A stretch of 57,939 bases of DNA, counting the filler, from Malassezia furfur (lineage: Eukaryota): NCBI GenBank assembly GCA_052055015.1. It is 3 parts of 3 records of this genome, joined end to end, with 100 filler letters (N's around TTAATTAATTAA, not from the genome) between each part and the next. Parts side by side here need not be neighbours in the genome. Positions count along the whole stretch, not along the records: positions 1 to 19,274 come from JBQJIT010000193.1; positions 19,375 to 38,609 come from JBQJIT010000194.1; positions 38,710 to 57,939 come from JBQJIT010000195.1. One strand, given 5' to 3'. The translations under genes and the position numbers were made by a program. The notes beneath the pieces were generated by a model. The model worked only from the letters and a program-made list of their open reading frames with translations. It had not been told where the DNA came from and did not search any database. This document shows, in pieces, positions 3,196 through 57,893 of this stretch. Within the stretch, counting starts at the first letter, position 1, and every line of letters starts with the position of its first letter.

Positions 3196-4302
3196 CTATG
3201 TACGCGATGCACCGCGATCCGTCACCGTCGATGACCCGCTCGGCCGCGCCATAAAGTCGCCGGGTAGGTCGACGCCGGCGCGTGCAGGGTGGCCGTAGCT
3301 GCCTGGCTCCCCGTCCTGGGGGATGCGCGGCGCACGCTTCGTCTCAAGCTCGCTTAGTGGATGCAGCTCGCCAGTTTGGAAGCGCTGCTGGCGCTTCTCA
3401 AGGTCGTGCGCCCACATTGCCGCGCCAATCCGGTTCGAGATCGAAAATGCCATGCCTAGGATCGGCACGCGCTCCAGCAGCATTGCGAAGAACCCAAAAA
3501 GCCAGTACGACGTACGCCGCTCTTCCACCCACACCTCAACCTGCTGGGGCGTCATGTGCTTGGCGTCAAACAAGGGCGACTGCAGCCTCACTGCATAGTC
3601 CAGCGCCGAAAAACCGGCATACACCACCACACCAAACAGGGGGATCGACGTCGTAAAGATCATGATCACCTTGCGCATCACCCAGCGAATGACACTCTGC
3701 TTCAGCCGCTCACTCAGACCGCGCCGCGGTGCGCTGGACGACTTGGGCGCGGGCGGCTTCTGCCACTCTTCCGTATACGGGGTCCACCAGTCGGCCGGCT
3801 TCCCACGCGAGGCGACTGTGTCCGCATACGCTGTGCGCCGAAAGTGACGGAGTTGCGTCTTGAGGTTTGTCTCGAACACGAAGCTCACCTGGTTCAGGAT
3901 GAAGAGCCATTTTGCCAGCGCTGCATAAGCATTGACACGTACCATGGAAGGACAGCATAGGGATGTGCATGGACCGCGCATATCCTGCCAGGAAATTGTA
4001 CGCGCTGCATCAGAATGTACAACGTACTGTTCTGCACCCACTGCAGTGCCGACACGGTGCACAAACAGCGACGAAAAGAAGCCTTGGAAGGGTAGCGAAA
4101 GAACCACCTGCGTGAGCGCCCTTTGTATCGTACCCAGAGACCGGCCATCATCCCAGCACGCGCCATCGAGTGCCGGCTGGCCTCCCAAATTGAGCGCCAG
4201 AGTTTCGGATCATGGAATAGACGATACACACCCACTGTGGTCAGCCGTGCGCGACCTACCAACCGTGTACACCGGCGGAAACTCGAGCGTAGCTTGCGGC
4301 AT
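3196..4302 (-). CDS. EI24/Rrt8/Lds-family membrane protein, 4 introns
   Basis: Starts MPQATLEFPPVYTV^VGVYRLF; introns 4235-4259, 4108-4133, 4005-4027, 3921-3942; C-terminal FGFFAMLLERVPILG..SNRIGAAMWAHDLEK. Confidence 0.7.
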
Positions 4303-4374
4303 TGTGGAGGTCAGGCACCAAAAGTAGGTGCCTGGCAAGTGATCCTACGAAGAGACACGCATGACGGTAGCTAC

Positions 4375-5140
4375 CTAGTCATCCCAGTCGTCGTCATCCT
4401 TGGGTGCAGATGGCACACCGAAACCCAGAATCGGCTTGCTTGCGGTCTGCTGTGGAACAATAACACCTTGCGTTAGCGCACCACGAACCTGCTCTACCGA
4501 GCCGCCATTCCAACGCCGCGGTCGAGAAGTTGTCTGCATTCCCAAAGTCCTCAAATCCGACCAGCCGCTCCTTGCATTCGCCATTCACGAAAGCAAGCAT
4601 GCATGGCAGGACTTTGATTTTGAGCTTCTCTACCAGGAACGGCGTGTCCTGCACATCAGCCTTGAGAAAGAGGGTATGCGGATGCTGACGCGCAAGATGC
4701 TGCGTGAGCTTAGTATACTTACCTCGAGATGCCGGTCGAGGATATGGCACCGCCGGAACTCCTTGTGCGCAAAGTGAATCACCACGCGCGGCTCTTTGTA
4801 GCTCGTCTGAAGCAGCTCTTTTTCGTCGCGCACTTCGCGATATTTGCCACGGTTTGCATTCGCACCGGTTCCTTTTCGTGCCGCAACACTACATCAGCCT
4901 TTCCACGTACGCGGCTTCAATTTCGGCCATGCGCTGCGCGCGATATTCCTGGAAGGCACTGGCCAAGTCGCCATTCGCGTCGCGTCCCGAGCTGCCTGTT
5001 ACTGCAGCTGCATCATCGGCGTCCGCCTCGTTCAGTGCCTCGACCTCGGCATCGAGCTCTGCAAAGATCTCGTCGTCGCTGCCCGTCTCATGTCGGTCGG
5101 CATACGACCCCAGATCCGGCGCGTCCTTCCACGCGCTCAT
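4375..5140 (-). CDS. PLP1: Phosducin-like thioredoxin-fold protein (Plp1/TXNDC9), 3 introns
   Basis: EYRAQRMAEI, VVIHFAHKEFRRCHILDRHLE, PFLVEKLKIKVLP, LVGFEDFG; introns 4889-4910, 4700-4722, 4467-4488; ends DDDDWDD. Confidence 0.85.
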
Positions 5141-5176
5141 GGCGAAACACGCTGAGTAATTGCACCTCCTCCACCC

Positions 5177-5962: not shown

Positions 5963-7275
5963 TTATACAAGTTGGATACTGTGTGAGTAGCATGTATACA
6001 TACTGAGAGAGCAAGACGCGCTCCCACTCGCGGAGCCCTTCGTCGTCTTTGGTTTCGGGGGTGCCCTTGCGCGCCGCTTCGAGCTCTGCGAGGCCTTGCT
6101 CGAAAACCGACCAAGGGATGCAGTTGCCAGGCAGCGACACCTGGCTGTCTTCTACAGAGGCACCGTCGGCGACTGGGCCATGTCCCAGCGAGAATTGGCC
6201 TTGACGTGTACGAATCAGGCGCACCACATGCGCTGCGCTGCCGCATGCCGCGCCAAGGTCGTGAATGATCGAGCGCACATAGGTCCCTGACGATACGGTC
6301 ATCTCCAGGGTAAATGCAGCAGGATGCTCCGATGCCGGGGCATCTGCGGATGCCTCCGCAGAGGTGGATTCTTTGGATTCGGGCTCGGCATTCTCTGTCT
6401 TCGGTTGCTCCGCGCCTTCGGTTGCCTCTGCGCCGTCTGATGCCGCCGGCTTCGTCGTGTCAAACGTGTGGTCACGACCCGCAATTTTTCGCATCCGCTC
6501 ATACACCTGCTTGTCTTCCTCGGACACTTCCATATCGGGCGCGCGGTATGTGTGCTTATCCTCGGGGAGCCATTCCACGAGACGAAGTTCGTGCACCGTC
6601 ACATCGCGTGCTTCAATGGGCCGAGGCAAAGGGATACCTTCGCGCGCGTACTCAAACAGCCGCTTGCCATCCATACGCAGCGCACTGTACAGCGGGGGTA
6701 TCTGCTGCACTTCTCCCGTGAACAGGGGCAGCTTTTCACGGATCAACGCCTCGGTCACCTGCGAAGAGGGGGCGCGGTACACCACTGCGTCTTTGCAATC
6801 GTACGAGCTGGTTGCACTGCCGAGCAACCCTGTTGCCCGGTAGTCTTTTGTGCAGTGCAAAAACTGCTGTAGTTCTTTGGTCGCGGCACCTACGCCGATC
6901 ACTGGGTAAGCAGAGCAACGTACCCAAGACACCTTCGGCCAAAGGGTCCAGCGTGCCGCCCTGACCAATCTTGGGGGGCAAGCGCCCGCACTTTTCAAGC
7001 ATTGCCTTTTCCCATGGCTTTGGCCGCTTGAGTTTCTTGGCGGCGCTCGAGAAAGGCGCCGGCGCATTAGTGGGGTAAAACAGCGCAGAGCTGGCAAGCA
7101 ACGGTTTGAGTTTGTCCAACAACTCCATGGACGTCGGACCGCTGGGTTTGGCAATAGCAAAGAGGCCCGACAACGGGCGGTCGGCTAGGGTTGGCGTGCG
7201 CCCACCCTTGGTCACTGGCGGCATCCTTCGAGCAAGCTGGGAAGCAGTTTCCAAGACGCGTCCCTTCGCACCCAT
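5963..7275 (-). CDS. PUS4: tRNA pseudouridine-55 synthase (TruB family), 2 introns; alternative start 7224
   Basis: FAIAKPSGPTS, KIGQGGTLDPLAEGVL^VIGVG, QIPPLYSALRMDGKRLFEYAR, VSSGTYVRS; introns 6902-6923 and 5979-6003 give the end LLSHIQLV*. Confidence 0.92.
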
Positions 7276-7305
7276 ACGCGAGTGGAGGTTTGGTAAGCGT
7301 GGACC

Positions 7306-9659: not shown

Positions 9660-10550
9660 ATGAGCTTTAGTGTGCAGTCGCAGAACAAGGTGTTTGACGG
9701 CGTGTTGACCAAATACGCATTCACGTCCTCTGCTCTTGGCGGACTCGAGACAAAAATCAATGTCTTCGTCCCCCCCAAAGCGAGCTCGAGCACCAAAGCG
9801 CCTGTTCTTTATTATCTTGCAGGCCTGACATGTACTGAAGACAATGGCGCGCAGAAGGGCGCTTTCTTCGAGGCGGCCGCCCAAGAGGGGATCGCAATCG
9901 TGTTCCCTGATACGAGCCCCCGTGGCGCCAACATTGATGGCGAGGACGAATCGTGGGATTTCGGCACAGGTACGTGGACGCCACTGACACCAGGCGCGGG
10001 CTTCTACCTGAATGCGACCAAATCGCCTTGGAACAAGTACTACAATATGTACGACTTTGTCACTAAGGAGCTGCCTGAGAAACTCAAGGCTTCGAATCTC
10101 CCGCTCGACCTGGAAAAGTCTTCGATTTTCGGTCATTCGATGGGTGGCCATGGCGCGTTGGTTCTGTACCTGCGCGAGTTTGGCACGTACCGCTCGGTGT
10201 CCGCCTTTGCCCCCATTTGCCACCCAACGGCTTGCCCGTGGGGTGAGAAAGCGTTCAATGGATACCTGGAAGGTGGCATGGAAGCAGGCAAAGAGTACGA
10301 TGCCGTGGAACTTCTTGGCAAACTGGGCAAGACGAACGTCGACATCCTCGTCGACTGCGGCCTGGCGGACAACTTCTACAAGCAGAAGCAGCTGCTCCCT
10401 GAGACGCTTACCGAGGCTGCGAAGAAGGCTGGAATTGATACAAGCCGTGTCCAAGTGAACATGCGCGATGGCTACGACCACAGCTACTTCTTCATCAGCA
10501 CGTTCGGCCCTGAGCACATTCGCTGGCATGCCAAGTTCCTGCGTGCTTAA
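9660..10550 (+). CDS. S-formylglutathione hydrolase (esterase D), 1 in-frame intron
   Basis: YLAGLTCTEDN, PDTSPRG, GHSMGGHGA, YDHSYFFI; removing 9970-9993 restores WDFGTGAGFY. Confidence 0.95.
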   Translation: MSFSVQSQNKVFDGVLTKYAFTSSALGGLETKINVFVPPKASSSTKAPVLYYLAGLTCTEDNGAQKGAFFEAAAQEGIAIVFPDTSPRGANIDGEDESWDFGTGTWTPLTPGAGFYLNATKSPWNKYYNMYDFVTKELPEKLKASNLPLDLEKSSIFGHSMGGHGALVLYLREFGTYRSVSAFAPICHPTACPWGEKAFNGYLEGGMEAGKEYDAVELLGKLGKTNVDILVDCGLADNFYKQKQLLPETLTEAAKKAGIDTSRVQVNMRDGYDHSYFFISTFGPEHIRWHAKFLRA

Positions 10551-11609
10551 TTAGTTTGCTTTCGTAGCACGCTTGCGACGACGCGTAGGCGTCTTCTTGG
10601 TACTGCTGGACTCCTCCACGACTTCCTCGGCCGGCACGTCCTGCGGCTCGGTAAGTTCCGTGTCGCGCTTCGCGAGAAACGACTTGATCATCGTGACAGG
10701 CCATGTGGTCAGCAGAGAGGGAGCATTCTTGTCTTCCAGCGGCTCAATCGCAAACCACTCTTGTGTCGCCGGGTTGCTCGCAGCCATACTGCCATCCGCA
10801 TAGACCATGACGTCCAGCAAGTGGTTGTCCTCCGAGAAGTTGAGCGGCGCAGAAGTAACGGCCTTGCGCACCTTCTCGCCCTCCTCATTCCAATCCACAG
10901 TTCCGGCCTTGATGGCGCTCTCAGTGGGCGCCTTGGGGAAGTCGGGGAAGCCCGAGAGCGGCACACGCACCTTCTTCTCGTGTGGGCGTGCTTTGGGCTT
11001 AATGCCCTTGGTCGAATCTGACGGCGTCTGGAACCAGGCACCCCATGCAAGTGCATAGGCGCTCCGCCGAAGGTTCTCAATACGCTCCTTGTCTTTGCGC
11101 CAGTTGATCTTTTGCACCAGCAGCTGCATCCCCACAGAGAAAGCCACGAGCAAGAACAGCACCAGAGGGAGGCCGGGGCGGTACCGCTCGTAGTAGTAGC
11201 CTGTGCTCCGCCACTTGGGGAAGCCGTGCGAGAGGAAGTGGTCGTAACGGTCACGGCGCTCGTCGCGCAAGATCTTGTGAATTAAGCCGAGCTGCTCAAA
11301 CCGCTTGTACGCATTGGGTACGCCCGAGTTCTTGTCGGGGCTGTGTGAGCAAAAGACACATACTGCCACTCCAGACTTTTCTCACGGTACGCCTTGCGGA
11401 TTTGCGCCAGCGTCGCACTCGGCTTCAGGCCCATGATCGAATAGAAGTTGGCACCTGCGCCTTCCATCTTCTCCAGTGCATGCTGGAGGTCGAAAATCTT
11501 CATGAGAGCTTGAACGTACCTCAATGTCATCTTTGTCCCAGTTGGCTGCGTAGACAATCGCGCTCAGTGCAAAGAGCGCACTCAACACGAGAAACCTGGT
11601 AAGGTGCAT
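10551..11609 (-). CDS. ERJ5: ER J-domain membrane co-chaperone (Erj5/ERdj1-like), 2 introns
   Basis: Signal peptide, WDKDDIE^IFDL, HPDKN restored by intron 11341-11363, RYDHFLSHGFPKWR..YYYERYRPG, TM helix; first intron 11498-11519. Confidence 0.88.
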
Positions 11610-11722: not shown

Positions 11723-12778
11723 ATGCCATTGCTTCCGTTTTGGGCATGCGCCGGTTACACGGTTGTATATGTCGGGTCGATTTATGTGCTCCCAAAGGTA
11801 TACGCATGGTTCTTCCCAGGAAAACAAATGGCAGAGAAGCGCAAACGTAATGAGCCTAGCGTGATTCGCGAACGGCTCTGGTCGGTTTCTGTCGCGACTT
11901 TCCTCAATCTTTTGGGTACGGCCTATGTTGTGCGTACGAGCGATTTAATCCAACGCAAGGTGTGTTGATATTACTCACGCCAGGGGCTGAATGGTGTCGC
12001 GCAAACGATGCAACTCATGGGTCTTCCTAGTCTCACTCCATCCTTGCTCACCTCCAACTTGCTTCCTTTCACCCCGGATTTACCCATATATGCTCTACAG
12101 CTGGGTAGAGTTGTAGGAGGTGCACTTCTCCTGACAGGTCTGGCCTACCTAGGCACCTTGTATTCGGACTACTGCGAGAAGTCGTTGCCAGCCCAACGCT
12201 ATTTTCGGCCACCAGCGACACGCCTCGAGTTCCTGCGCAATTTTGTGTTGGGCCCAACCACTGAAGAACTCGTCTTCCGGTCATGTATGCTTGCAACACT
12301 GCAATTTGGTGGTGCGAATCTCTCTCGGATAACCGCCATTCTTACCACGCCCCTCTATTTTGGACTGGCGCATCTGCATCACGCATATGAGCTATATCGA
12401 CACGACAAGACACCCAAGGCATTGCAGCGCGCCAGTCTAAGCGGAGGTTCGTCACGGATTCTCACAACAGTGATTCAGTTTGCCTACACAACCGTATTTG
12501 GTTGGTATGCTGACTACCTTTTCGTACGAACAGGTACGTTGGACTTCTTACTCCAGGTTCGGTCTTGGCGCCTTTGGCGGCACATATCTTCTGTAATGCC
12601 ATGGGTCTACCTCGCTTGCCGCACAATGTCTCTGGAGCTACATCTGCGTGGAGTAAGTGACATACATCGTCTGACTGCAGCCGTCGCGTTGCACATCTTG
12701 GGCGCCGCTGGATTCGTACTTTGCATGCCCTCCCTAACATCCTTGTCGCTATGCGACGCTTACAACTTTCAGTCATAG
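11723..12778 (+). CDS. RCE1: CAAX prenyl protease 2, 4 introns
   Basis: YVGSIY, RNFVLGPTTEELVFR, FGLAHLHH, QFAYTTVFG, HIFCNAMGLP (seen only after splicing); introns 11960-11983, 12447-12470, 12534-12556, 12653-12680. Confidence 0.9.
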
Positions 12779-12812: not shown

Positions 12813-13155
12813 TTACTTGTTGAGGCCAAGCGACTCCTTAGCCGAGTTGACGGCGTTCTGGGCCTGCTCGGTGAAGCTCGAGCCAGCCGAGTTGCCAGAG
12901 CCGCCGAGGGTCTCCTTCAGGCTCTCGGTCTTCTCCGACAGGAAGTTCTTCGCATCCTGGCCGTACTCGCTAGCGGCTGCGGTGTTAGTATTCGATGATC
13001 GAATATGACCACGTACTGTTCGAGAGGCTGCTGGCCTCGTTCTTGCCCTGCTGGGACAGGTCGCTAGCCTGGTTCTTGCCCTGCTGGGCGTACTCGCTGG
13101 CCTGGTTCGAGAGGTTGCTGGCCTGGTCCTTAGCTTGCTGAGTGTAAGAAGACAT
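12813..13155 (-). CDS. 100-aa hydrophilin, LEA/Hsp12-like, 1 intron
   Basis: 11-mer repeats QQAKDQASNLS/QQGKNQASDLS/QQGKNEASSLS; intron 12977-13016 joins to TASEYGQDAKNF..AKESLGLNK*; strong codon bias. Confidence 0.8.
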
Positions 13156-13707: not shown

Positions 13708-14887
13708 ATGGCAACAGGTTATTTGGCAGCAGAGCGCCGTGTCGCCATTGAAGCAGTTCAGGCTGCGTGCTCAATCACGACGAAAGTGTTCCAGAGCCTC
13801 GTATCTAGTGAATCGATCACAAAAAAAGACAAGTCGCCCGTCACCATTGGCGACTTTAGTGCACAGGCGGCTGTGAATGAAGTGCTCTCGCATCATTTCC
13901 CAGATGACGGCATCGTCGGCGAGGAAGATTCGGCAGATCTCCAGGGCGAGCAGGGCGCGGACCTGCGCGGCAAAGTGTCGCACCTCGTGAATGAGTCGCT
14001 GCTGCAGCATGGCCAGACGAAGACGCCCCTGTCCGACACGCAGCTTCTGAACGCCATCGACTTGGGCTCGTTCCCGGGCGGCAAATCGAAGCGTATGTCA
14101 TCCAACTTACGCAGGGTTCTGGGCGCTTGACCCGATCGATGGAACCAAGGGGTTCCTGCGCGGCGGTCAGTACGCCGTGTGCCTTGCGTTGCTTGTCGAC
14201 GGGCGTGTGGAGCTGGGCGTAATGGGCTGCCCGAACCTGCCCCTCGACTCGTCACAGCCGAAGCCGGCAGACGGTGAGATCCGCTCGAAGCAGATTCCAG
14301 GCCTCGGTGCGCTGTTTGTGGCGGTCCGTGGACAAGGCGCCGTGGTGGTGTGTAGCAATGCGTGAAGCTGACATACAGCGTCCGATCCAGGGCAGCGATG
14401 TCACCGAAAAGCCGATCTACATGCGCGACCTCCAGGGCGACTTTACGAAGTCGGCATTTTGTGAATCCGTCGAGGCTGGGCACTCGTCGCTGACCACGAA
14501 TGCGCGCATCGCTGAGCTGCTCGGTATTCCAAAGGACCATTCGGTACGCATGGACAGCCAGGCGAAGTACGCGAGCATTGCGCGTGGCGATGGCGACATT
14601 TACCTGCGTCTGCCCGTGGGCGATGGCAGCTATCAGGAAAAGATTTGGGTACGTCTACGAGACTCACCGTGCAGGATCATGCCGCAGGCACGCTGCTGGT
14701 CGAAGAGGCCGGCGGTACGGTTTCCGACATTGCGGGCCGCCCGTTGGACTTCAGCCAAGGCCGTACGCTGAACAAAAACCGCGGCGTGATTGCATGCCAG
14801 ACCAACATGCACGGCCGGCTGACCGAGGCGGTGGCCCAAGCGCTGCACGAGGAAGGGCGTGAGCAGCTGCTCGCGCCGGTGCCGTAG
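13708..14887 (+). CDS. MET22: 3'(2'),5'-bisphosphate nucleotidase, 3 introns
   Basis: [45 protein letters not shown]^DHAAG; introns 14093-14114, 14348-14378, 14649-14674. Confidence 0.95.
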
Positions 14888-14952: not shown

Positions 14953-15887
14953 ATGAGCACGCATTCGTACGCGAACCTGCTGCCGCCGTCGTGGAAGACG
15001 GTGGTGCTGGAGTGGTTCAAGGAAGACTGTCCGTCGTTTGATTGGGGCGGGTATGTTGTAGGTGAGGCGGAGCGCACCGCGACGCTGCTGTGCAAGACAG
15101 AGGGCGTGCTGGCCGGTGTGCCGTTCGTGAACGCCGTGTTCGAGGAGATGCAGTGCAGCGTCACCTGGAACTTCGACGAGGGATACTTTTTCACGGCAAA
15201 GGACAGTGTGCCCGGTACACCCGAGGGGCGCGTCAAGGTCGCCGTGGCGCACGTGCGGGGCCCGACGCGGAACCTGCTGCTGGGCGAGCGCGTGGCCCTC
15301 AACACGTTGGCACGGTGTTCCGGCATTGCGACGGCGTACGTGCACCACACTCACGCAGATCTCGGCGCATGCTGAATGCCGCGCGCGCAGCCAACTACCG
15401 CGGGATTGTCGCAGGCACGCGCAAGACCACGCCCGGCTTCCGGCTGGTGGAGAAGTACGGCATGATTGTAGGGGGTGTGGACGCGCACCGCTACGACCTG
15501 AGCAGCATGGTGATGCTCAAGGACAACCACGTGTGGAGCACGGGCTCCATAACGAACGCAGTAGAAGCGGCGCGGCGTGCCGCGGGCTTTTCGCTACGGA
15601 TCGACGTCGAGGTGCAGTCCAAGGCGGAGGCGGAGGAGGCCATCCGCGCGGGTGCCGACGTGGTGATGCTCGACAACATGACGGGCGATGAGCTGGTGGC
15701 GTGTGCGCGCTCGCTCAAGGGGGAGCTGGGCGGTGCGCACCGCTTCCTGCTCGAGAGCAGCGGCGGCATCACGTTGGCCAACTTGGAGCAAGGGGCGCAC
15801 CTCGACGATGCGATCGACATCATCAGCACGAGCGCGATCCACCAGTCGACGCAGCACGTCGATTTCAGTTTGAAGATTGACCACTAG
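14953..15887 (+). CDS. BNA6: Quinolinate phosphoribosyltransferase, 1 intron
   Basis: [48 protein letters not shown]; intron 15336-15358. Confidence 0.95.
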
Positions 15888-19274: not shown

Positions 19275-19374
19275 NNNNNNNNNNNNNNNNNNNNNNNNNN
19301 NNNNNNNNNNNNNNNNNNTTAATTAATTAANNNNNNNNNNNNNNNNNNNNNNNNNNNNNNNNNNNNNNNNNNNN
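19275..19374. other. Artificial scaffold linker (44N-TTAATTAATTAA-44N)
   Basis: Six-frame stop linker centred in exactly 100 bp; genes on both sides are truncated. Confidence 0.97.
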
Positions 19375-38947: not shown

Positions 38948-38975
38948 CACGCCGTCCTCCCCCCCGCCGCCGACG

Positions 38976-40864
38976 ATGGGCGGCAGTGTGACGTCGCGAT
39001 GGGTGCGTAGGAGGGCGCGCTGACGCAGGTCGAGTACCGGACCCCGCAGGGACGCCCATACTGGTACCACTCCGTCGAGAAGCGGAGCGTGTGGGACAAG
39101 CCGGCGGAGCTCAAGACGGCGCGTGAGCGCGCGATCGACGCGACGCCCTGGCGCGTGTACAAGGCGGGCGAGCGCAGCTACTACGTGCACCGCGAGACCA
39201 AGACGTCGACGTGGACGATGCCCCCCGAGATCAAGCAAATCTACGACACCGTGCCCGACGACCCGCCCGAGGCCGTGCCGATGAACGCGCCGGCGAGTCC
39301 GCATGCCGTCGCGCCGAGCGCGTCGCCGAGCAGCCCCGCGGTGGGCGGCGGAAGTCTGACGCCGTTCGCGGGCACGCCGGACACGGGCAACGCGTCGCCG
39401 ATGGTCGGTGTGCGCGCGACGTCGCGCACCCCGGCGCCGGCGCAGACGGTGCCGATCTTCACCAACACCAACGACGCAGAGCTCGCGTTCATGAAGCTCC
39501 TGCGCGAAAAGGGCATCGACGAGACGTGGACGTGGGAGCAGGCGATCCGCGAGATCGTGATGGACCCCATGTACAAGGCGTTCAAGACGCTCGCGGAGCG
39601 CAAGGCCGCGTTCAACAAGTACCAGGACCGCCTACGGACGCTCGCCGCCGAGGAGCGCGCCGAGAAGGAGGCGCGCATCCGCCCGGCGATGGTCAAGGCG
39701 CTCGTCCACGACGGCGGACTCAAGTGGTACGCGAGCTTTGCCACCTTCAAAAAGAAACTCGCGCCCTTCTCGTTCTGGAGCGAGGTCGAGGGCGACGAGG
39801 AGCTCGCGATGCAGCTCTACGAGTCCCTCCGCAAGGACGCGCGCGACAAGCACGACGCAGCGGAGCGCGCGACGCAGCGCCACAACGAGGCCGCGCTCGG
39901 CGCGCTGCTCAAAACGATCGCGATGGATACCAAGACCCGCTGGCGCGACGTGCACCGCACGATCGTCGAGTCGGACGAGTTCCGCCAGGACGCCCAGCTC
40001 CAGACGATGCCCATCCCCGAGATGCTCGCACAGTTTGAGGCGCACATGAAGGACATCGAGGCACACGAAAAGACAGAGCTTGAGGCCGAGCGGCGGCGGC
40101 GCGCGCGTGCGGCGCGTGTCGCGCGCGACGAGTTCCGCGCGCTGCTCGACGAGCAGATCGCCCAGGGCGTCCTCACCGCGCGCAGCACGTGGGCGGCGAT
40201 CGTGCCCAAGATCCGCAATGACCTGCGCGTCGACGCGGTGCTCGCGGTGCCCGGCTCGTCGCCGCAGCAGCTGTTCTACGATGCGCTCGACGAGCTGGAG
40301 CGCGGCTTTGCACAGCACCTCAAGGCCGTGCAGGCGCACCTGCAGACGCACCCCGTGCCGATCGACGACGCGCACTGGCCCGCGTTCCTGGCGGCGCTGC
40401 GCGCGGACGACGCGCCGAGCACGGTGCGGCAGCTGCCCGAGCACGAGCTGCACGAGATCTACGACGAGCTGCTCTACCAGGCGCAGCGCGACGCGCGCGA
40501 CCAGCGGCGGCGCACCGAGCGGCGCCTGCGGCACCAGGTGGACGACCTGCGCTACGCGATGAAGCGCGCACAGCCGCCGCTCGACCCCACGTCGACGTTC
40601 GACGCGAGCGTGCCGCAGCTGCAGGCGCTGCCCGAGTTCCGCGAGCTGGAGCGCCTCGAAGGCGGCCTCGACGCGGCGCGCACGGCGTGGGACCGGTTTG
40701 CGCGCCGCGAGCTCGAGAAGCGCCACGACGCCGCGTACACGGACCTTGACGGGGCCTCGGAGGAGCGCAAGCGCAAGGACGCGCCGCCGGATCCCGCGCT
40801 GGACCCCCGCGCCGTGCGCCGGCGCGTGCGCTACGACACCGGCGACGAGCCCGTCGCACCGTAG
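38976..40864 (+). CDS. PRP40: U1 snRNP protein Prp40 (2 WW + FF domains), 1 intron
   Basis: W^VEYRTPQGRPYWYH..SVWDKP after intron 39003-39028; second WW; FF repeats (AFMKLL..WTWEQA..ERKAAF). Confidence 0.92.
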
Positions 40865-42739: not shown

Positions 42740-43440
42740 CTAGGCGAGCTGCTCGCCGGACGACAGGAGCGCCTGCCGCGCTTCGTGCTCGTGATTGTCC
42801 ACGGGCGGCACCTCGTCGTACTCACCCTCGTCGGGCGTCTCGAGCACAATCTTACGCAGCAGCTCGTATGCCCGGTTCAGGTCGTCGTTCACAATGATGT
42901 AGTCAAACGAGCCCGACTTGCGCGCGTAGTGCAGCTCGTGTAGCGCCATCTTGAGCCGGCGCGTGATGGCCTCGTCCGTGTCGGTGTTGCGCCCTTCGAG
43001 ACGCTGACGCAGCGCACCGTACGAGGGGGGGGATACGAAGACGTACACGGGGTTCAGGTGCGCGTGGTTCATCTTGATCAGCTTTACCCCCTGCGAATCG
43101 ATGTCCAAGATCGCACGGCGATGTCCGTGCTCCGACGAGCTCACGCTCTGCACCGCCTTGGCAGTAGTGCCGTACAGGTTCCCGCTGAACTCTGCATATT
43201 CAAGGAACTCGCCGAGCTTGATCAGCCGCTGGAATTCGTCGCGCGACACAAAGTGGTACGACTTCCCGTCCGTCTCCCCCGGGCGGATCTGACGCGTGGT
43301 GTCTGGGTCAGCACATCGCACGTACGGCTCACGCTGAACCCGAACTTGTTCGGGAACTCATCAAAGAGACGCTTGATCAGCGTGCTCTTGCCCACGCCCG
43401 AGGGGCCGCACAGCACAAGGGGACGCAGCGTGCTCATCAT
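42740..43440 (-). CDS. GUK1: Guanylate kinase, 1 intron
   Basis: [13 protein letters not shown]^HTTR via intron 43303-43325, [23 protein letters not shown]. Confidence 0.96.
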
Positions 43441-43532: not shown

Positions 43533-44794
<1,262 letters not shown>

Positions 44795-44866: not shown

Positions 44867-46433
44867 CTACCAACCAAAGAGGCCGTCGGCCAGCCTGCCT
44901 ACGACCGACTTGGACGCAGGCGGGGCACCAGGCTGCGAGGCGCTCGCCGGCGTGCCGCCGAGCGTATTGCGCCACATTGCCTCACCTGCGCTCACCGCCG
45001 CGCGCAGGGGCGACAGGCCGGGCGTCGACGGGTTCTTCTGGGCGAGCGCCGAGATCGGGGTGTCGACCACATCGATCGGGCGGCCAAAGAGCGGCGTGCT
45101 CTTGTTTTGCAGCGGCGCACGCGCCGGGGCGGGCGTGCTCGGCGCCGGGGGCTTGGCATCGGACTGGCCAAGGAGCGCGGCGTCGAGTCCGCGGATCTGG
45201 CTGAGCTCATGCAGCGCATCGCTTTCCCAGCGCACACCGATCATGCAGGTATTCGCCACGAGCTGACCACTGCGGCGCACCGCCATGAGCGCCTGGTACG
45301 GCGCGCCGTACGTGAGCCGCGCAATCGAGGGCAGCGCACCCTTGGGCGGCTTGCCGTCGGTCGTCGCGAGCAGGTCCGACTGGGCATGATCCAGCGGCAC
45401 TTCCTCGCTCTTCTGGAGTCCGCCGATCGCTGCAAAATGGTCCACCACGCGCGTGTAGAGGTAGCCGGGGAAGCCATAGACCAGGACCACGCGCTGCGCG
45501 ATCGGCACCTCTGCCGGTGCCTTTTCCGGCGTCGCCGTGGCACGCGTGCTGAGCGACGCCTGGAATGCCAGGGGGGCCTGCTGGGCCACATCCGTCAGCG
45601 CATCGGCCGGCGGCGCATCGTCGTCGTCCATGGCGCTCGTGTTGGCCTCCACGCCAAAGAAGTTGGTGCTAGGTGCAGCGGCCGGCTCGCTCGGTGCGCG
45701 CAGCAGGTACGTGCGGTCCGGATCTTCCTGCTTGCGCGTGCCGCGCAGGCCTCCCTGGCCAAAGATGCTGCCCTCGCGTCCTTTGTTGGCCGGGGGCGGC
45801 GAGTGGGCGAAGCGGCTATCGTCTGCGGCTTGCGATACGTTGAAGAACGACGAGCTGAAGCGGTTCGTCGGCGACGCGCTCGGCGCGGCGCGCCTGCTCG
45901 CCTGGGTCTCTTTGCCGCCGGGCAGCACCAGCGAAGTGTCTGCGTCGCGCGCCGGTGGGGACGCCGACTCGATTGGGCGGTGCGATGACGAGCTCGCCTG
46001 CGTTAGCCATGGTACGTACGCGCTCATTCCCACGCATCTTGGAGAGGTATCCTGGGAGGTAGTTGACCGGCGCCTGGCCCGGCTGCATCGGCGACGGCTG
46101 CGCACTCAGCGGCTGCGGCGGCGCCGGCGAGTAGGTAGCGTTTCCAGCAAACAAGGACGTATTTTGCTGGCTCTGTGGCGTGCCGAGCGTGGTCTGCTGC
46201 CCCCACTGCGGTGTGGTCTGGGGCGCCATCGGCTGCTGCGGGCGGTTCTGCGGTGTGAAAGTATTCGTGCCCTGCGGCTGCAGCAGCCCGGCCTGGCCGT
46301 GGGCGGGCGTCGCGGGCGAGGCACCGATGGACGGATTCCCGAACTGCATGCCCCCCTGCGATCCGAAGGGCGTAGCGGTCGTCTTCTGCGCCCAAGGCGA
46401 GCTGCCTTGTGCCTGCTGCGACGCCGAAAACAT
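44867..46433 (-). CDS. Nucleoporin Nup53/Nup35 family, 1 intron
   Basis: YLPGYL, RRM-like VLVYGFP..HFAAIG..LTY..ALMAVRRSGQ..MIGVRW, C-terminal amphipathic VVGRLADGLFGW; intron 45998-46019. Confidence 0.85.
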
Positions 46434-46591: not shown

Positions 46592-47562
46592 ATGGAGAAC
46601 TACCAGAAGATTGAGAAGGTCGGAGAAGGTACGTGAGACGCGCTCACGCAAGGCACATACGGTGTTGTGTACAAGGCGCGCGACCTTACCCCGGGTGCCA
46701 ATGGGCGTATTGTGGCCCTGAAGAAGATCCGCCTCGAGGCCGAAGACGAGGGCGTTCCCTCGACGGCCATCCGCGAGATTAGTCTCCTGAAGGAGCTGCG
46801 CGATGAGAATATCGTGCGGCTCCTCGAGATCATCCACCAGGAGTCGCGGCTGTACCTCGTGTTTGAGTTCCTGGACCTCGATTTGAAGAAGTACATGGAC
46901 AATGTCTCGAGCCAGCCCGAGGGCCTGGGACCCGAGATTGTCATGGCACGTACCCACCGCTGACCCCAGAAATTCACATACCAGCTTGTGCGCGGCATCT
47001 ACTTCTGCCACGCCCACCGTATCCTGCACCGGGACTTGAAGCCCCAGAATCTGTTGATCGACAAGGAGGGCAACCTCAAACTTGCCGACTTTGGCCTTGC
47101 GCGTGCGTTTGGCATTCCCCTGCGCACATACACCCACGAAGTGGTCACGCTGTGGTACCGCGCCCCCGAGGTCCTTTTGGGCTCGCGCCACTACAACACG
47201 GCGATCGACATGTGGTCGGTCGGATGCATCTTTGCGGAGATGGCCATGCGCACGCCGTTGTTCCCCGGCGACTCGGAGATTGACGAGATCTTCCGCATCT
47301 TCCGCACGCTCGGTACCCCCAACGACGAGACGTGGCCCGGTGTCAAGTCACTTCCCGACTACAAGACGTCCTTCCCCCAATGGAGCGGTGTTCCGCTCAA
47401 GAAGGCCGTGCCTGCATTGGACGACAACGGCCTTGATCTACTCCGGCAGATGCTCGTGTACGACCCCGCGAGCCGGATAAGCGGTACGTTGGAATACCCC
47501 ACTGACGCCCAGCCAAGCGCTCCCTGCAGCACCCCTACTTTTCCGCGGTGACGGCCCATTGA
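46592..47562 (+). CDS. CDC28: Cyclin-dependent kinase 1, 3 introns (one GC-AG)
   Basis: GE^[43 protein letters not shown]; introns 46629-46652, 46946-46969, 47484-47512. Confidence 0.97.
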
Positions 47563-47704: not shown

Positions 47705-48382
47705 TTAGACGTTGTGCCAGAGGAAGTTGCGCATGCTATCCCACTTGTCCGAGAGCACATACAGGTCTGGGTCAGCAGCGCGCGCCACATACAATCCATG
47801 CTGTTCACCAGCCCACCGTTGAGACGCTGGCGGCGGTTGACAAAGAGCCACATCACCGTACCCCAGGTGATCGCCGCGAAAATCTGATGGGCAGTGTTGT
47901 CAACCGGAATCACCTTGTCTGCGGGGTAATCGGAGGGCACCTTGGCGCGCGGCAGTAGCGACGCAATGCAGCGGCCCACACAGTACAGTACAATCTGGGT
48001 CAGTCTGTGCCATGCATACCTGTTCGTTGATGGGCGTGCGCTCACCAAACATGTACCAGCCGCCGATGAGACCAGCAATGAACGAATGGTTGGGGCTTTG
48101 CTTCCCGCTGGGCGACAGGTCACGCAGTATGGCCAGGATAGTCTTGTAAATCGCCACGTACGATCCCAGACGCACAGCGTGCTGGCGCGTGGCGGTCAAA
48201 ACCTTGCGGAACTTTTCACGCGGGGAACCCGAGCCAAAAAGAAAGACCATGACCAGGGCGTGCGGGAAGCGAATTTTGGCACCATACACGAGACCGTTCC
48301 GCGCGCCCTTCACAACGGAGAGCATATCATGGTTCGCGGGGTTCAAGATAAACTTCGTGAGCGCTCCCTGGATCTGCGACAT
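47705..48382 (-). CDS. PXMP4: Peroxisomal membrane protein 4 (PXMP4/PMP24), 2 introns
   Basis: KGARNGLVYGAKIRFPHALVM, INEQ^IVLY, WGTVMWLF, SMD^YLY..NFLWHN; introns 47995-48019, 47767-47792. Confidence 0.92.
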
Positions 48383-48453: not shown

Positions 48454-48463
48454 NNNNNNNNNN
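48454..48463. other. 10-N assembly gap after a poly-C run
   Basis: Visible Ns. Confidence 0.95.
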
Positions 48464-50409: not shown

Positions 50410-51421
50410 ATGACGGAGCCGCCGAGCTTGGGCCGCGTGCGCGCCGTCCTGTTCGACGTACGTGCCAAGCTCATCACAGATGGACGGCCTGCTGATTGAC
50501 AGCGAGCGTGTGCGTGTGGTGCACTCATCCAGATTTATACGGACGTCGTGAACGAGATCCTGCGGCCTCACGGCAAGGAGCAGACGTGGGAGGTCAAGTC
50601 CCAGCTGATGGGCAAGCCGGAACGCGATGCAACACGTACGTGGCACGCTGACACAGTGACCCTTTTTCGTGCGCTATGGCCGCCAAGGCCAGGCAATGCA
50701 GAGGACGAGGCGCGCGGATTCAGCGACGAGTGTCCCTTCACCATCGACTCGTTTCTGAAAGAGCGCAATGCGCGCCTTCTCCCTGCGTTCGAAAGTGTCC
50801 CCGCAATGCCGGGCGCCGAGCGGCTCGTTGCACACCTTGAGAAGCACAAGATCCCGATCTGTGTACGTGCCGCAGCTGACCAGCAGGTGGCCACTGGTAG
50901 CAAACGGTTCAACTGTGCGTCGACCCACTGACCCAGACCAAATCAAGTCTGGCGCCAATCCGACCCTTTTCCGACACTTTGGGGACCGCGCCATCTGCGG
51001 TGATGACAAGGCTGTCGTCGGTCGAGGCAAGCCCACGCCGGATATCTTCCTAGTCGCCGCGCACCACGGTTTGGGGCTGCAGCACTCCGAAGAAGGTCAG
51101 CAATTCCTGGACCGCGTGCGCCTGCCGGGCGCGGAGCACGACGGTACGCTTCGTGGCGCCGAGCATGAGATTCTCGTATTTGAGGACGCCTTGCCTGGCG
51201 TGCAAGCGGGGCTTGCCGCCGGTATGCGGGGTACGTTTGGCTCTACTAACACAATACAGTCGTGTGGGTCCCCGATCCCAACGTAAGTACAAAACAGGGG
51301 TATGCTCATGCAGCTGCGCAAGGTCACCGAGCACGGGCCCGATGTGGGCGCGCACCAGCAGATCGACTCGCTCGAAGCGTTCCAGCCGGAACTCTGGGGC
51401 CTGCCGCCGTTTGACGCTTAG
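50410..51421 (+). CDS. HAD-superfamily hydrolase (pseudouridine-5'-phosphatase/GS1-like), 7 introns
   Basis: VLFD^MDGLLIDSE, MPGAERLV, VATGS, GKPTPDIFL, LVFEDA..GV.AG.AAGM, VWVPD; introns 50458-79, 50510-32, 50636-56, 50863-86, 50915-36, 51231-59, 51283-313. Confidence 0.88.
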
Positions 51422-52102
51422 GCCGCACGCACTTTGCCCTCGGCCTCTTCCAGCTGCGGCTCGCTGGGGAGCTCATCGACAAAGTCGATCTGGGATGGGG
51501 CTGGCGCCGCGTGCTGCAGGTACGAGGGCACCTCGAACTCTTGCTCGGCTGGCTCTTCTTCGCTGAAGGTTAGGGATACGCTGGGATACGTACAGTGCTT
51601 CGAGCTCCGCTTCGAGCTCCGTCTCGTCGATATCGTCAGGCACGCCGTAGGAACGGGACATAGTCTCTTGGAGCGCATTGGATTGCTCGAGTAGGTCTTC
51701 CATGTCGTCTTGTATCCGCTCGATCTTGTCAATGTCCAAGTTGCCGTAGGTCTTGCGGAGCTGCTTGTTGGCCTGCTGCATGGCACCGACCGTGGCCATG
51801 GTGTTGCGCAGGTTTTCCGTGGTCATCATGCTCTGCTCCATGTTGTAGCTTTGTTGCGTGAGCTGTTCGATCTGCGCCTCGTACATGCGCTTCTGCTTCA
51901 GGACTCGCATCGCGCGCTGCTGCACGGCCGTTTTGCCAGGTCCATCGCGCATGCGCTTCATTTGATCGCGATAGCGGCCGAGCTCGGCATCCAGGCGACT
52001 GATTTTCACCTGCGTCGCCTCTGCGCGCGCATCTGTGCTGGCAATCGCCTGCTGCAGGTCTGGCTTGGGCTTGTTCTGCGACAGACCCAGCAAGCGGTAC
52101 AT
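51418..52102 (-). CDS. VPS60: ESCRT-III associated Snf7-family protein Vps60/CHMP5, 1 intron
   Basis: MYRLLG..PKPDL, KQKRMYE..QQSYNMEQ, IDKIERIQD, SRSYGVPDDIDETELEAELEAL; intron 51563-51593. Confidence 0.92.
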
Positions 52103-52204: not shown

Positions 52205-53041
52205 ATGTCTTGGGGCGGTTTCAAGAAGTCGATCAACCGGGCAGGCACCCAGCTGATGCAGAAGACGGGTCAGCTGGAGCGCTCGGATGATTCGCGCTTC
52301 AAGGAAGAGGAGCAGAAATACCGTGAATTTGAGAAGCACACCACGGCGCTGCTCAAAAACTCGCGCGAGTACCTCGATGCGATCCGATGTACGTCTACGT
52401 GCTCTCACCCTCAGTGCTCGCGGCCTCTCAGGCGCGGATTGGAGATACGATCGAAGGGTTCTACTCGGATTCGACCGAGACGGCGATGGTGGCCAGCACC
52501 TACAAGCGGTCTGTCGAGGAGTTGGATGCGCGGACCGCCAAGGAACTCGATCTGCCGTACCGCGCGACCGTGCTGGACCCGATCAGCAAGCTCTCGAGCT
52601 ATTTCCCGGAGGTAAACAAGCTGATCGAGAAACGCAACCGCAAGCTCTTGGACTACGACGCGGCCCGTTCCCGGCACAAGAAGATTGCGGAGAAGCCGAG
52701 CGACGACCCTTCAAAGCTGCCTCGGTACGCATTTACACTAACGCAGCGCGGATCGCGAGCTGAACGATGCCAAGCTCGTCTTTGAGGCAATTGACCAGCA
52801 GCTGATGAACGAGCTGCCACAGCTGGTTGACATGCGTGTGCCATACCTGGATCCCTCGTTGGAGATGATGATCCGGGCACAGATCAAGTTTGCGCAAGAG
52901 GGCTATGAACAGCTTGGAAGTGTCCAGCGCTACTTCCCCGAGCACGTCCGCAACGAATATGCCGAGGGCCAGCTGGATACCCAGGTGGAAGGCGTGCTGC
53001 AGGAGATGCGCGCGCTGTCCATCTGCGGCACGGCTCAGTAA
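52205..53041 (+). CDS. RVS161: BAR adaptor Rvs161/Hob3, 2 introns
   Basis: MSWGGFKKSINRAGT, KRNRKLLDYD, ELPQLVDMRVPYLDPS; introns 52389-52414, 52725-52746. Confidence 0.95.
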
Positions 53042-54864: not shown

Positions 54865-55003
54865 TCAGTGTGCCGCGGTCCATGCGCGCCGCGCGCATCC
54901 CAAAACCGGGTCGCACTGTCCCATAGCACGCACGCCTTGTCCATGCACAATTTTGCTTTTTCTACGTGACACACGCTAGCAACGAGTACCGGAAGTGCAC
55001 ACG

Positions 55004-55750
55004 CTACGGAGAGCCGAGCGTGATGGCATCCACGCGGAGACGGGTATAGGGCTGCTTGTGGGTGACCACCTTGTCGTAGCCTTTGCGGCGCTTAAACTTT
55101 TCGATGCGCTCCATCGGTCCCTTGGTATGCTCGACGACCACACAGCGAACGCGCACGACCTCGGGTGAAAGCACCGCACCGACGTGCGCGAGGCCCGACG
55201 GAACGAGCTGGGCGGCCCACGACGAGGACCACGGCAGAACGGAGTCCGACGACGACTGGGCCATGGCAGTCGACCGCGTCGCGACGCCGACGGCAGCCGC
55301 GCGAGGCGCGTCTTCCGCACCCTTTTCCTGGAACAGCACGAGCGGGAACTTGCCGCCCTGGGCCTTGCGGCGGCCCAGCGCCGGGTCTTGGGCGCGCAAC
55401 GTGTAGTTGCGGCTGCCCACCTCGTGGATGCGGTCGAGGTCGAGAACATCGCCGACCTGGACGCCGCGGATGCGCGGAAGCGTGACGACGTCCGACTCGC
55501 TGAGCACAAACGTGCGACCGGTTATGGAGGCGACCACGTAGTGGTTCGGCTGCGAGCGCAGCAGGCGGAGCGCAGCGGCCGTGTCCTCCACGGGGTGCTG
55601 CATCTGCGCGGCGCCGAGCGAGGCGTGCGCTTTTTCAGGATTGGTAGGTACCGTAGAGTGGCGTGCAATGGCAGGCACTGTGCGGGGTGCCATTGCGGCG
55701 CCCCGGCCCGCGAGCGTCGCCCGAATCAGCGGCGTGGCCCAGGCCTTCAT
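55004..55750 (-). CDS. MRPL49: Mitochondrial ribosomal protein bL21m
   Basis: HYVVASITGRTFVL..DVVTLP..VGSRNYTL, VVEHTK..KFKRRKGY..HKQPYTRLRV. Confidence 0.88.
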   Translation of the reverse strand: MKAWATPLIRATLAGRGAAMAPRTVPAIARHSTVPTNPEKAHASLGAAQMQHPVEDTAAALRLLRSQPNHYVVASITGRTFVLSESDVVTLPRIRGVQVGDVLDLDRIHEVGSRNYTLRAQDPALGRRKAQGGKFPLVLFQEKGAEDAPRAAAVGVATRSTAMAQSSSDSVLPWSSSWAAQLVPSGLAHVGAVLSPEVVRVRCVVVEHTKGPMERIEKFKRRKGYDKVVTHKQPYTRLRVDAITLGSP

Positions 55751-56068
55751 GCTTCCGCGACGTCTTCGCTTTCGTCGCGCGTTCTGCGCCGCACCGCCGA
55801 TGTCCACGTGACTTTCGCGTGCTTTGCTGGCCCGTCCGGAACGATCCGGTGCCCCGGCCGAGACCATGTGCGCTGTAATTCCCCGACACGAGCGAGTCCC
55901 ACGATTCGCTGATTCGGGACCCGAGTCTGCGGCCGCGGCCGTGCCCGGCCCTGCTGGCACTTCGCGGCGCGGCCCGGCCGGGCTTTCTCACCTTCCGCTT
56001 TACGGCTACGGACCTCTAGTCCTTGTCAACTTCTTCTGTTTCACTACGACCCGAGATACTTAGTCGCA

Positions 56069-57893
56069 ATGCTCGCTAGGTCCTCCGGCATTGCAGTTGC
56101 TAACCTTGCCCGCACCTCTCTGGTGGCTACGGTATGTATCACTAGGATCGCGCCTAGTCCCCCCTCTTTCCGCGCCGCCGGCGGGAGGAGGAAAAAACAG
56201 GGGTGATCCGTACTGATGTCGCCCTGATCGGATGCTAACACCAGGCTTTGTGCCGCTGTATACAGGCCCGCCGCAGCTCTCCTGCTGTCGCTAACGCGAT
56301 CCGCACGTACGCGACGAACAAGGCTGGTACGTGGTGCTATCGTGCGCGGGAACCGATGCTAACCCCCCTCTAGCCGCCTCGGAGGTGTCTTCGATCCTTG
56401 AGCAGCGCATTGCTGGCGCCGCCCCCAACTTCAACGTTGAGGAGACAGGCCGTGTGCTCTCGATCGCCGACGGTATCGCCCACGTCTACGGTCTCGACAA
56501 TGTCCAGGCCGAGGAGCTGGTCGAGTTCTCGTCCGGTGTCCAGGGTATGGCCCTGAACTTGGAGGCCGACAACGTCGGTATCACCGTGTTCGGTTCGGAC
56601 GCCCTGATCAAGGAGGGTGACACGGTCAAGCGTACCGGCCAGATTGTCAGCGTTCCGGTTGGCCCGGAGCTGCTCGGCCGTGTGGTGGATGCCCTCGGCA
56701 ACCCCATCGACGGCAAGGGTCCCATCAACGCCAAGGAGACCCGCCGTGCGCAGGTCAAGGCCCCCGGCATTCTCCCCCGTCACTCGGTCAACCAGCCCAT
56801 GCAGACTGGTTACAAGGCCGTCGACGCCATGGTGCCCATTGGCCGTGGTCAGCGTGAGCTGATCATTGGTGACCGTCAGACGGGTAAGACCGCCCTGGCG
56901 CTCGACACCATCCTCAACCAGCGCCGCTGGAACGACAGCAAGGACGAGGAGAAGAAGCTCTACTGTGTCTACGTCGCTGTCGGCCAGAAGCGCTCGACCG
57001 TTGCCCAGCTCGTGCAGCACCTTGAGCAGCACGATGCGCTCAAGTACTCGATCATTGTGGCTGCCACGGCCTCGGACGCTGCGCCCATGCAGTACCTGGC
57101 TCCCTTCAGCGGCTGCTCGATCGGCGAGTGGTTCCGTGACAACGGCAAGCACGCCCTGGTGGTGTTCGATGACCTGTCGAAGCAGGCCGTCGCCTACCGT
57201 CAGATGTCGCTGCTGCTCCGCCGTCCCCCCGGTCGTGAGGCGTACCCCGGTGATGTCTTCTACCTGCACTCGCGTCTCCTGGAGCGTGCCGCCAAGATGA
57301 ACAAGGACCACGGTGCTGGTTCGCTCACGGCGCTGCCCATCATTGAGACCCAGGGTGGTGACGTGTCGGCCTTCATTCCGACTAACGTCATTTCCATTAC
57401 CGACGGTCAGATCTTCCTGGAGTCGGAGCTCTTCTTCAAGGGTATCCGCCCCGCCGTCAACGTCGGTCTCTCGGTGTCGCGTGTCGGTTCGGCTGCCCAG
57501 ACCAAGGTGTACAAGGCCGTGGCCGGTTCGCTCAAGCTCTACCTCGCCCAGTACCGTGAGCTGGCTGCCTTCGCCCAGTTCGGTTCGGACCTGGACGCCT
57601 CGACCCGCTACACCCTGAACCGTGGTGCGCGTCTCACTGAGCTGCTCAAACAGCCCCAGTACCAGCCGCTCGCCACCGAGGTGCAGATCCCGATTCTGTT
57701 CGCCGGTGTGCGTGGTCTGCTCGACGAGATCCCCGTGGACAAGATCGTCGAGTGGGAGGCGACCTACCGCGACGAGCTGCAGAACCAGCCTGAGCTGCTC
57801 GCCGAGATCGGCAAGGGTGTCTTCACCAAGGAGCTCGAGGAGAACCTCACCAAGTCGGTCAAGAACAGCGTGTCGTCCTTTGTCGGCAACTAA
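56069..57893 (+). CDS. ATP1: Mitochondrial F1 ATP synthase alpha subunit, 2 introns in the presequence region
   Basis: [42 protein letters not shown]; introns 56132-56244 (or -56265) and 56327-56373. Confidence 0.97.

Follow-up and report, generated by a model that had tools for sequence, protein, structure and literature searches.

How short can spliceosomal introns become in a culturable yeast, and does their size call for an altered splicing machinery? The question is raised by a 57,939-base stretch of Malassezia furfur DNA (referred to below as the window), for which an earlier reading made without any database search (the sequence-only reading) had described a system of introns most often 22 nucleotides (nt) long. 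We describe the window, with a probability of about 0.9, as a gene-dense chromosomal segment of M. furfur or a very close relative in which approximately 27 of some 45 genes are cut by ordinary U2-type GT-AG introns that have shrunk nearly to three signals. The introns exist as elements: they follow one grammar, they lie on the coding strand, and their removal restores conserved proteins.

A Pfam scan of 275 open reading frames identified ordinary eukaryotic housekeeping genes on both strands of the window. The closest named proteins are from Malassezia, with 99% identity between the product of the HAD-family gene and the M. furfur pseudouridine 5'-phosphatase and 97% identity between the CDK1 of the window and that of M. 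psittaci. The window was therefore assigned to M. furfur or a very near relative, and the genes, whose encoded proteins are near-identical to deposited Malassezia proteins, were taken as Malassezia nuclear genes.

Intron lengths and signal grammar

Curation yielded 57 introns in 27 of the approximately 45 gene models (Table 1). Their lengths ranged from 21 to 47 nt, with a median of 25 nt and a mean of 26.7 nt; 38 introns were 21-26 nt long and 12 were exactly 22 nt. The sequence-only reading had counted about 58 introns between positions 3921 and 56373, 39 of them of 21-26 nt and 12 of 22 nt, with a median of about 25 nt. The curated values stay close to these figures, and the outermost introns were found at the same two coordinates. 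Both the bulk of the introns (45/57) and their median fell below 30 nt, which places this one window, not the genome, in an ultra-short regime, and about 22 of the roughly 45 genes hold at least one intron shorter than 30 nt. Toward short lengths the distribution breaks off sharply, with nothing below 21 nt and a peak at 22 nt; no intron under 21 nt survived, though the scan described below went down to 16 nt.

The introns began with GT in 56 cases and with GC in one, and all 57 ended with AG (CAG 48, TAG 6, AAG 3). The sole non-GT donor belongs to the second CDK1 intron (GCACGT...CTGAC...CCAG). GTRYGY donors were present in 46 introns, corresponding to an extended 5' splice-site consensus of the GTRNGY type; GTACGT was the most frequent hexamer (29), followed by GTGCGT (6), GTAAGT (5), GTATGT (4), GTACGC (4) and others (9). 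The branch motif was CTNAY in 56 introns and TTGAC in one, with a purine at position -4 of the motif in 47. The putative branch A, assigned by motif, was located at +16 to +18 in 29 introns, and its distance to the 3' end was 5 nt in 27 introns and 6 nt in 14. In most introns the donor hexamer and the branch motif were 6-8 nt apart, and the spacer between CTNAY and YAG measured 1-5 nt in 54 of the 57. The grammar proposed earlier (GTRYGY, CTNAY, 1-5 nt, YAG) thus describes most donors and nearly all branch sites and spacers. The proposed lack of a pyrimidine tract was likewise borne out, as 61 of 121 spacer bases (50%; first 54 introns) were pyrimidines. A polypyrimidine tract before the acceptor is a metazoan feature and is not required in fungi. 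The G+C content of the introns was 56%, compared with 64% for the window. U12-type introns are recognized by a rigid ATATCC or GTATCC donor and the branch site TCCTTAAC; neither donor was found among the 57 introns.

Lengths that are multiples of three (3n) were under-represented (10 of 57; binomial P = 0.006). Six of these ten introns contain an in-frame stop and four are stop-free. In ciliates, a shortage of 3n lengths has been attributed to surveillance of retained introns. The shortage in the window suggests, as a small-sample hint, selection against retained introns that escape surveillance.

The window was scanned on both strands with the strict grammar GTRYGY...CTNAY...(0-8 nt)YAG at a total length of 16-80 nt, and the chance expectation was obtained from 50 second-order Markov simulations. 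Matches of up to 33 nt numbered 48, against 7.4 +/- 3.2 expected, a 6.5-fold enrichment, whereas matches of 34-80 nt were at chance level (22 observed, 18.4 expected). The 48 matches represent 43 distinct acceptor sites, of which 41 belong to curated coding-strand introns and two are false. Both false matches are antisense to a gene: one at 5820-5852 (-), and one at 12644-12665 (-) that overlaps the real intron at 12653-12680 (+) and arises because the donor region of that intron is partly palindromic (GTAAGTGACATAC versus GTATGTCACTTAC).

The curated set was built from a grammar-restricted gene model and manual checks, and introns with other donors (GTAAGT, GTAGGT, GTACGA, GTTCGT and one GC-AG) were added. 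Ab initio gene finding with GT-AG ends or the donor pattern alone linked separate genes by way of false introns of 50-200 nt and was abandoned. Relaxed scans that allowed GC donors or any GTNNNN donor returned almost nothing but second donors for introns already in the set and chance matches in coding sequence, such as the one at 41482-41502 inside conserved coding sequence of an Hsp70 gene; three real introns were gained by aligning proteins and by loosening the grammar more mildly. Three longer or shorter readings were dropped: 21946-21976 (31 nt) in favor of a 35-nt reading with a GTAAGT donor, a 53-nt reading at 15306 in favor of 23 nt, and a 38-nt reading at 51222 in favor of 29 nt. The donor of the last intron is ambiguous between 56327 and 56342.

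Protein evidence for intron removal

The spliced products were compared with protein sequences, structures and Pfam profiles. Twenty-nine of the 57 introns are absent from orthologous, solved or deposited proteins. Orthologous or deposited proteins support 14 of them (CDK1, 3; HAD phosphatase, 7; thioredoxin-like gene, 3; EI24-like gene, 1), and solved structures support four (esterase D, 1; histone H4, 3). The remaining 11 are supported by Pfam continuity, that is, by consecutive profile positions that match adjacent exon pieces in different frames (TruB, DnaJ, quinolinate phosphoribosyltransferase, kinase, Fra10Ac1 and guanylate kinase, one each; inositol phosphatase, 3; BAR, 2).

The spliced product of the seven-intron HAD gene equals the deposited M. 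furfur protein P0123 save for 4 substitutions in 279 residues, and CDK1 without its three introns aligns free of gaps with the CDK1 of Tilletiopsis, Ustilago and Cryptococcus. In histone H4 the main exon aligns to residues 6-99, and a 10-nt first exon joined to an 8-nt micro-exon (43575-43582, between introns of 32 and 28 nt) supplies exactly MSGRGK. A second micro-exon, of 23 nt, lies in the HAD gene (51260-51282), and the first coding exon of the Imp4/Brix gene consists of the ATG alone (32962-32964, +).

Several points weigh against this account. For 28 introns the evidence consists of frame continuity and grammar, with no homology, and five of the 57 are weak (marked in Table 1). Frame logic by itself is unreliable in GC-rich DNA, where the unconstrained gene finder made many false long introns. 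The case for splicing is drawn from proteins and from published M. sympodialis and M. restricta data, and the motif was the sole guide in placing the branch points. The shortage of 3n lengths concerns only 57 introns, and stop-free in-frame introns are the hardest to detect. Finally, the M. furfur CBS 9595 model P0157 skips an exon that is kept here, contradicting the introns at 3921 and 4005, but this model itself appears to be a chimera in which a portion of the thioredoxin-like gene is joined with the neighboring EI24-like gene (3196-5140, -; proteins P0157 and P0142). In its EI24 part, P0157 shares only about 90% identity with the window, which indicates that the window comes from another M. 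furfur lineage than CBS 9595.

Table 1. Introns of the window, with the one splicing-factor gene seen in it (last row)
Position	Strand	Gene	Intron or feature	Evidence
3921..3942	-	EI24-like	22 nt	grammar and frame continuity; P0157 skips region; no homology backing
4005..4027	-	EI24-like	23 nt	grammar and frame continuity; P0157 has same donor, far acceptor
4108..4133	-	EI24-like	26 nt, donor GTACGA	P0157 continuous across; window frame changes there
4235..4259	-	EI24-like	25 nt, donor GTAGGT	connects ATG exon with VGVYRLFHDPKLW exon
4467..4488	-	thioredoxin-like	22 nt, GTTCGT...AAG	gapless spliced alignment to M. japonica, Mortierella, Basidiobolus proteins
4700..4722	-	thioredoxin-like	23 nt, GTAAGT	ortholog alignment
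4889..4910	-	thioredoxin-like	22 nt	ortholog alignment
5979..6003	-	TruB/Pus4, 3' end	25-nt candidate, weak	perfect grammar only
6902..6923	-	TruB pseudouridine synthase	22 nt	Pfam TruB_N 8-23 to donor; 24-135 from acceptor, other frame
9970..9993	+	S-formylglutathione hydrolase (esterase D)	24 nt, in-frame, stop-free	8-residue gap exactly there versus 3fcx, 8ilj
11341..11363	-	DnaJ	23 nt, splits J domain	Pfam DnaJ 1-28 and 28-63 on two exon pieces
11498..11519	-	DnaJ	22 nt, AAG acceptor	frame continuity
11960..11983	+	Rce1-like protease	24 nt, in-frame stop	frame continuity; three-intron model gives 366-codon open frame
12534..12556	+	Rce1-like protease	23 nt	Pfam Rce1-like match reaches donor; frame continuity
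12653..12680	+	Rce1-like protease	28 nt, GTAAGT	frame continuity and grammar
12977..13016	-	small hydrophilic protein	40 nt	frame continuity
14093..14114	+	inositol-monophosphatase family	22 nt	Pfam Inositol_P 7-76 then 85-141
14348..14378	+	inositol-monophosphatase family	31 nt	Pfam Inositol_P 85-141 then 137-219
14649..14674	+	inositol-monophosphatase family	26 nt	Pfam Inositol_P 137-219 then 216-267
15336..15358	+	quinolinate phosphoribosyltransferase	23 nt	Pfam N and C domains in the two flanking frames
21946..21980	-	MAP-kinase-kinase-like	35 nt, GTAAGT	Pfam Pkinase 38-165 then 166-263; junction GTSTYMS/PERIQG
22383..22405	-	MAP-kinase-kinase-like	23 nt	frame continuity
23085..23127	-	SQS_PSY family, near 3' end	43-nt candidate, weak	grammar only
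27018..27050	-	VAP/MSP-domain	33 nt	frame continuity
27077..27121	-	VAP/MSP-domain	45-nt candidate, weak	frame continuity
31536..31560	-	V-ATPase B subunit	25 nt	gene model
31621..31642	-	V-ATPase B subunit	22 nt	gene model
32021..32051	+	RF-1-domain (GGQ)	31 nt	Pfam RF-1 match stops at donor; junction GGQNVNK[L]NTKV
32135..32165	+	RF-1-domain (GGQ)	31 nt	frame continuity
32256..32279	+	–	24-nt candidate, in-frame, stop-free, weak	grammar only
32965..32990	+	Brix/Imp4-like	26 nt, right behind ATG	ATG 32962-32964 connects to LRRQARERREYVYKK
33683..33709	+	Brix/Imp4-like	27 nt	Pfam Brix cut at 158 of 193 at donor; frame continuity
34152..34173	+	Fra10Ac1 family	22 nt	Pfam 1-40 and 29-110 in two frames
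34402..34429	+	Fra10Ac1 family	28-nt candidate, weak	frame continuity
38469..38497	-	Rad17/Rad24-like	29 nt	Pfam Rad17 begins at model position 45 past acceptor; frame continuity
39003..39028	+	Prp40-like	26 nt, inside first WW	junction ...SRW/VEYRTPQGRPYWY; Pfam WW, FF
43303..43325	-	guanylate kinase	23 nt	Pfam Guanylate_kin 3-43 and 35-179 in two frames
43543..43574	+	histone H4	32 nt	exons either side needed for MSGRGK
43583..43610	+	histone H4	28 nt	joins micro-exon to main exon
43893..43918	+	histone H4	26 nt	...RTLYG to FGA-stop; H4 chain has three residues past position 99
45998..46019	-	Nup35-like	22 nt	frame continuity
46629..46652	+	CDK1	24 nt, in-frame stop, inside GEGT/YG	8-residue gap versus four orthologs
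46946..46969	+	CDK1	24 nt, GC-AG (GCACGT), in-frame stop	gapless ortholog alignment once removed
47484..47512	+	CDK1	29 nt	removal restores ortholog-like sequence
47767..47792	-	membrane protein	26 nt	frame continuity
47995..48019	-	same membrane protein	25 nt	frame continuity
50458..50479	+	HAD pseudouridine-5'-phosphatase	22 nt, inside FD/MDG	P0123 match
50510..50532	+	HAD gene	23 nt	P0123 match
50636..50656	+	HAD gene	21 nt, shortest of 57, in-frame, stop-free	P0123 match
50863..50886	+	HAD gene	24 nt, in-frame, stop-free	P0123 match
50915..50936	+	HAD gene	22 nt	P0123 match
51231..51259	+	HAD gene	29 nt, followed by 23-nt micro-exon	P0123 match
51283..51313	+	HAD gene	31 nt, GTAAGT	P0123 match
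51563..51593	-	Snf7 family	31 nt	frame continuity
52389..52414	+	BAR-domain	26 nt	Pfam BAR 1-58 then 75-168
52725..52746	+	BAR-domain	22 nt	Pfam BAR 75-168 then 172-231
56327..56373	+	ATP synthase alpha	47 nt	GTACGT donor preferred over GTGCGC at 56342 (32 nt); acceptor common to both
38889..40864	+	Prp40-like U1 snRNP protein	whole gene; only splicing factor seen in window	Pfam WW (2 stretches), FF

Some features of the window concern its sequence and gene content in general. Five runs of N were counted, located at 19275-19374 and 38610-38709 (each a pair of 44 N with 12 bases between) and at 48454-48463 (10 N). Gene models are broken by these runs, for example upstream of the Rad17-like gene, and further introns may be hidden there. 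The G+C content is 57-60% at 4-16 kb and 62-69% in the remainder, and the genes at 4-16 kb were scored poorly by the codon model, whose training set consisted of genes with high G+C at third codon positions. Two tandem acyl-CoA thioesterase paralogs (27162-28595 and 28869-30026, both +) share the same Pfam domain pair and are both apparently intronless. A Pfam match to PF10712 (NAD-GH) at 40834-42024 (-) is antisense to the Hsp70-family gene at 40885-42699 (+); PF10712 is a family known to originate on the antisense strand of Hsp70 genes, and the match is therefore probably no gene.

Spliceosome assembly and competing explanations

As U2-type introns, these elements would retain three signals: a strong donor, which reads GTACGT in half of the introns; a branch site, R-CTNAY, like that of yeast; and, only 5-6 nt past the branch A, a YAG acceptor. 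According to established knowledge, the donor would be read by U1 and U6, and U2 would pair with the branch site. Yeast U2 small nuclear RNA (snRNA) pairs with positions -4, -3, -2 and +1 of the branch motif and leaves -1 free; in the window, the same four positions are conserved as such pairing would require, and -1 is free. The loop of the lariat formed when the branch A attacks would then measure only 16-18 nt. The abrupt lower limit of the length distribution suggests a deletion bias that has acted down to minima of about 16 nt between the donor and the branch A and about 5 nt between the branch A and the 3' end. We saw no need for special splicing machinery.

The sequence-only reading had gone further and proposed that the footprints of U1 and U2 could barely coexist on introns of this size, which would imply a remodelled route of spliceosome assembly. 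Such a route could take the form of an early exit of U1 before stable U2 binding, of U1-free donor recognition, of a U1 snRNA changed to match GUACGU, or of trimmed branch-helix proteins. The small interval between donor hexamer and branch motif, which leaves no room for a pyrimidine tract, is in line with this idea, and GTACGT carries a C at +4 that would mismatch the standard 5' end of U1. A study of Stentor also conjectures changed branching factors that avoid a steric clash (PMC9505925). However, the same study reports that Stentor, with introns of 15-16 nt, retains the full set of snRNAs together with the core proteins of U1 and U2, and Stentor, myxozoans and others with equal or shorter introns keep U1, U2 and U2AF (PMC9505925, PMC13644364); tiny introns alone therefore do not imply a rebuilt spliceosome. 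In the window itself, the Prp40-like U1 small nuclear ribonucleoprotein (snRNP) protein keeps its WW and FF domains. The atlas clusters closest to it bear the name 'U1 snRNP protein' (score 0.96), with a recognition value below threshold that makes this a lead only. None of the Rfam families reached threshold in the window, and no snRNA was detected there. Whether U1 and U2 would collide on such introns is a fair question; the inference of an altered route gained no support from the present analysis and appears improbable to us.

It is very unlikely that a large part of the candidate set consists of motif matches by chance or of short coding insertions that are kept in frame. This possibility draws on the two false strict-grammar matches, on several relaxed matches that fall in conserved coding sequence, like that in the Hsp70 gene, and on the four stop-free in-frame candidates, which could be read through and one of which, at 32256-32279, is among the weak introns. 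It is opposed by the 6.5-fold enrichment over simulation, by the 47 of 57 lengths that are not 3n and would shift the frame on read-through, by the stops within six of the ten in-frame introns, and by homology, which confirms 29 introns including three of the four stop-free in-frame ones. It is refuted for the bulk of the set and possible for the five weak introns. That the frame breaks stem from errors of assembly or sequencing or mark pseudogenes, as the presence of N runs might suggest, is already refuted, because random insertions and deletions would show neither the uniform GT...CTNAY...YAG grammar nor conserved positions, and independent public Malassezia proteins imply the same structures.

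Known short-intron systems and public gene models

The claim that short introns are general in Malassezia is supported by published work on two further species. M. sympodialis was reported to have 5350 introns with a mean of 30 bp and RNA sequencing (RNA-seq) support for 99% (PMC5389616), and M. restricta a median intron of 30 bp (PMC9241646), its annotation having been made with the minimum intron set at 15-20 (PMC6473144); a review also mentions 'very short introns' in Malassezia genes (PMC7426719). These species belong to the same genus and show the same phenomenon as the window, whose median of 25 nt and mode of 22 nt, taken from one window, compare with means or medians of 30 bp. Very short Malassezia introns are thus already known, in print and in deposited annotation, and their analysis is thin. 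The length mode, signal grammar and branch distances for M. furfur were not found in the open literature that was searched.

In Yarrowia lipolytica the branch site nearly abuts the 3' splice site and there is no pyrimidine tract, but the introns are long overall; the short distance from branch to acceptor is thus common to both, whereas in the window the whole intron is minimal. The proposed likeness in size to ciliates and microsporidia also held. Introns of about 25 nt are reported for Paramecium (PMC5014332), and the branch A of Stentor introns occupies position 10-11 (PMC9505925). Ciliates resemble the window in having GT-AG introns of 15-30 nt and a very small lariat loop, but the ciliate introns are AT-rich and their branch consensus is weak (PMC9505925), in contrast to the 56% G+C and the strong yeast-like donor and branch motifs found here. 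Microsporidia, dicyemids and myxozoans have median introns of 22-27 bp and retain U2-type signals and splicing factors (PMC13644364), in which lengths and signal type they match the window; these are obligate parasites with reduced splice-site motifs, whereas Malassezia is a culturable yeast with strong ones. The exceptions listed in the accessible text of that 2026 paper on the shortest introns are ciliates, microsporidia and dicyemids; Malassezia is not named there.

It had also been predicted that annotation pipelines would mis-model genes of this kind, and several public models indeed carry insertions, deletions or truncations exactly at intron sites. In M. psittaci, the CDK1 model contains nine surplus residues where intron 2 lies and terminates within intron 3. 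For the HAD gene, the M. equina model has an insertion at intron 3 and lacks one block, the M. yamatoensis model lacks an exon stretch and has a wrong end, and the M. caprae model stops at intron 6. For the thioredoxin-like gene, 7 residues are inserted in the M. psittaci model where intron 4467..4488 lies, and the M. pachydermatis model is gapped close to a second intron site; the apparent fusion in P0157 belongs to the same category. One study annotated new Malassezia assemblies by means of funannotate, with M. sympodialis proteins and, where available, RNA-seq as guides (PMC10410736), and several of the mis-modeled genomes may come from that study. For M. globosa, the introns annotated by an older pipeline averaged 76-79 bp, and 76-85% of junctions were supported (PMC4634964); this average fits a mis-modeling of tiny introns.

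The floor seen in the lengths (no fewer than 16 nt separate the donor and the branch A, no fewer than 5 nt follow up to the 3' end, and the total is never below 21 nt) could be a true physical limit of a co-adapted fungal spliceosome, a proposal that we regard as rather unlikely. Co-adaptation may, for example, have fitted the 5' end of U1 to GUACGU, trimmed the branching factors, or led U1 to hand over to U2 without the two ever occupying the intron together. If the proposal were true, the splicing of tiny introns could for the first time be studied in a tractable system, a yeast that can be cultured and transformed, and the shortage of 3n lengths would point to a ciliate-like surveillance of intron retention in a fungus.

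For the genus, errors in gene models are inherited by any orthology, drug-target or allergen work that is based on public Malassezia proteomes, and a grammar as strict as the one described here could serve to repair these models. As a free-living, culturable yeast with introns of the size found in parasites and ciliates and with unusually clear signals, Malassezia could serve as an experimental model.

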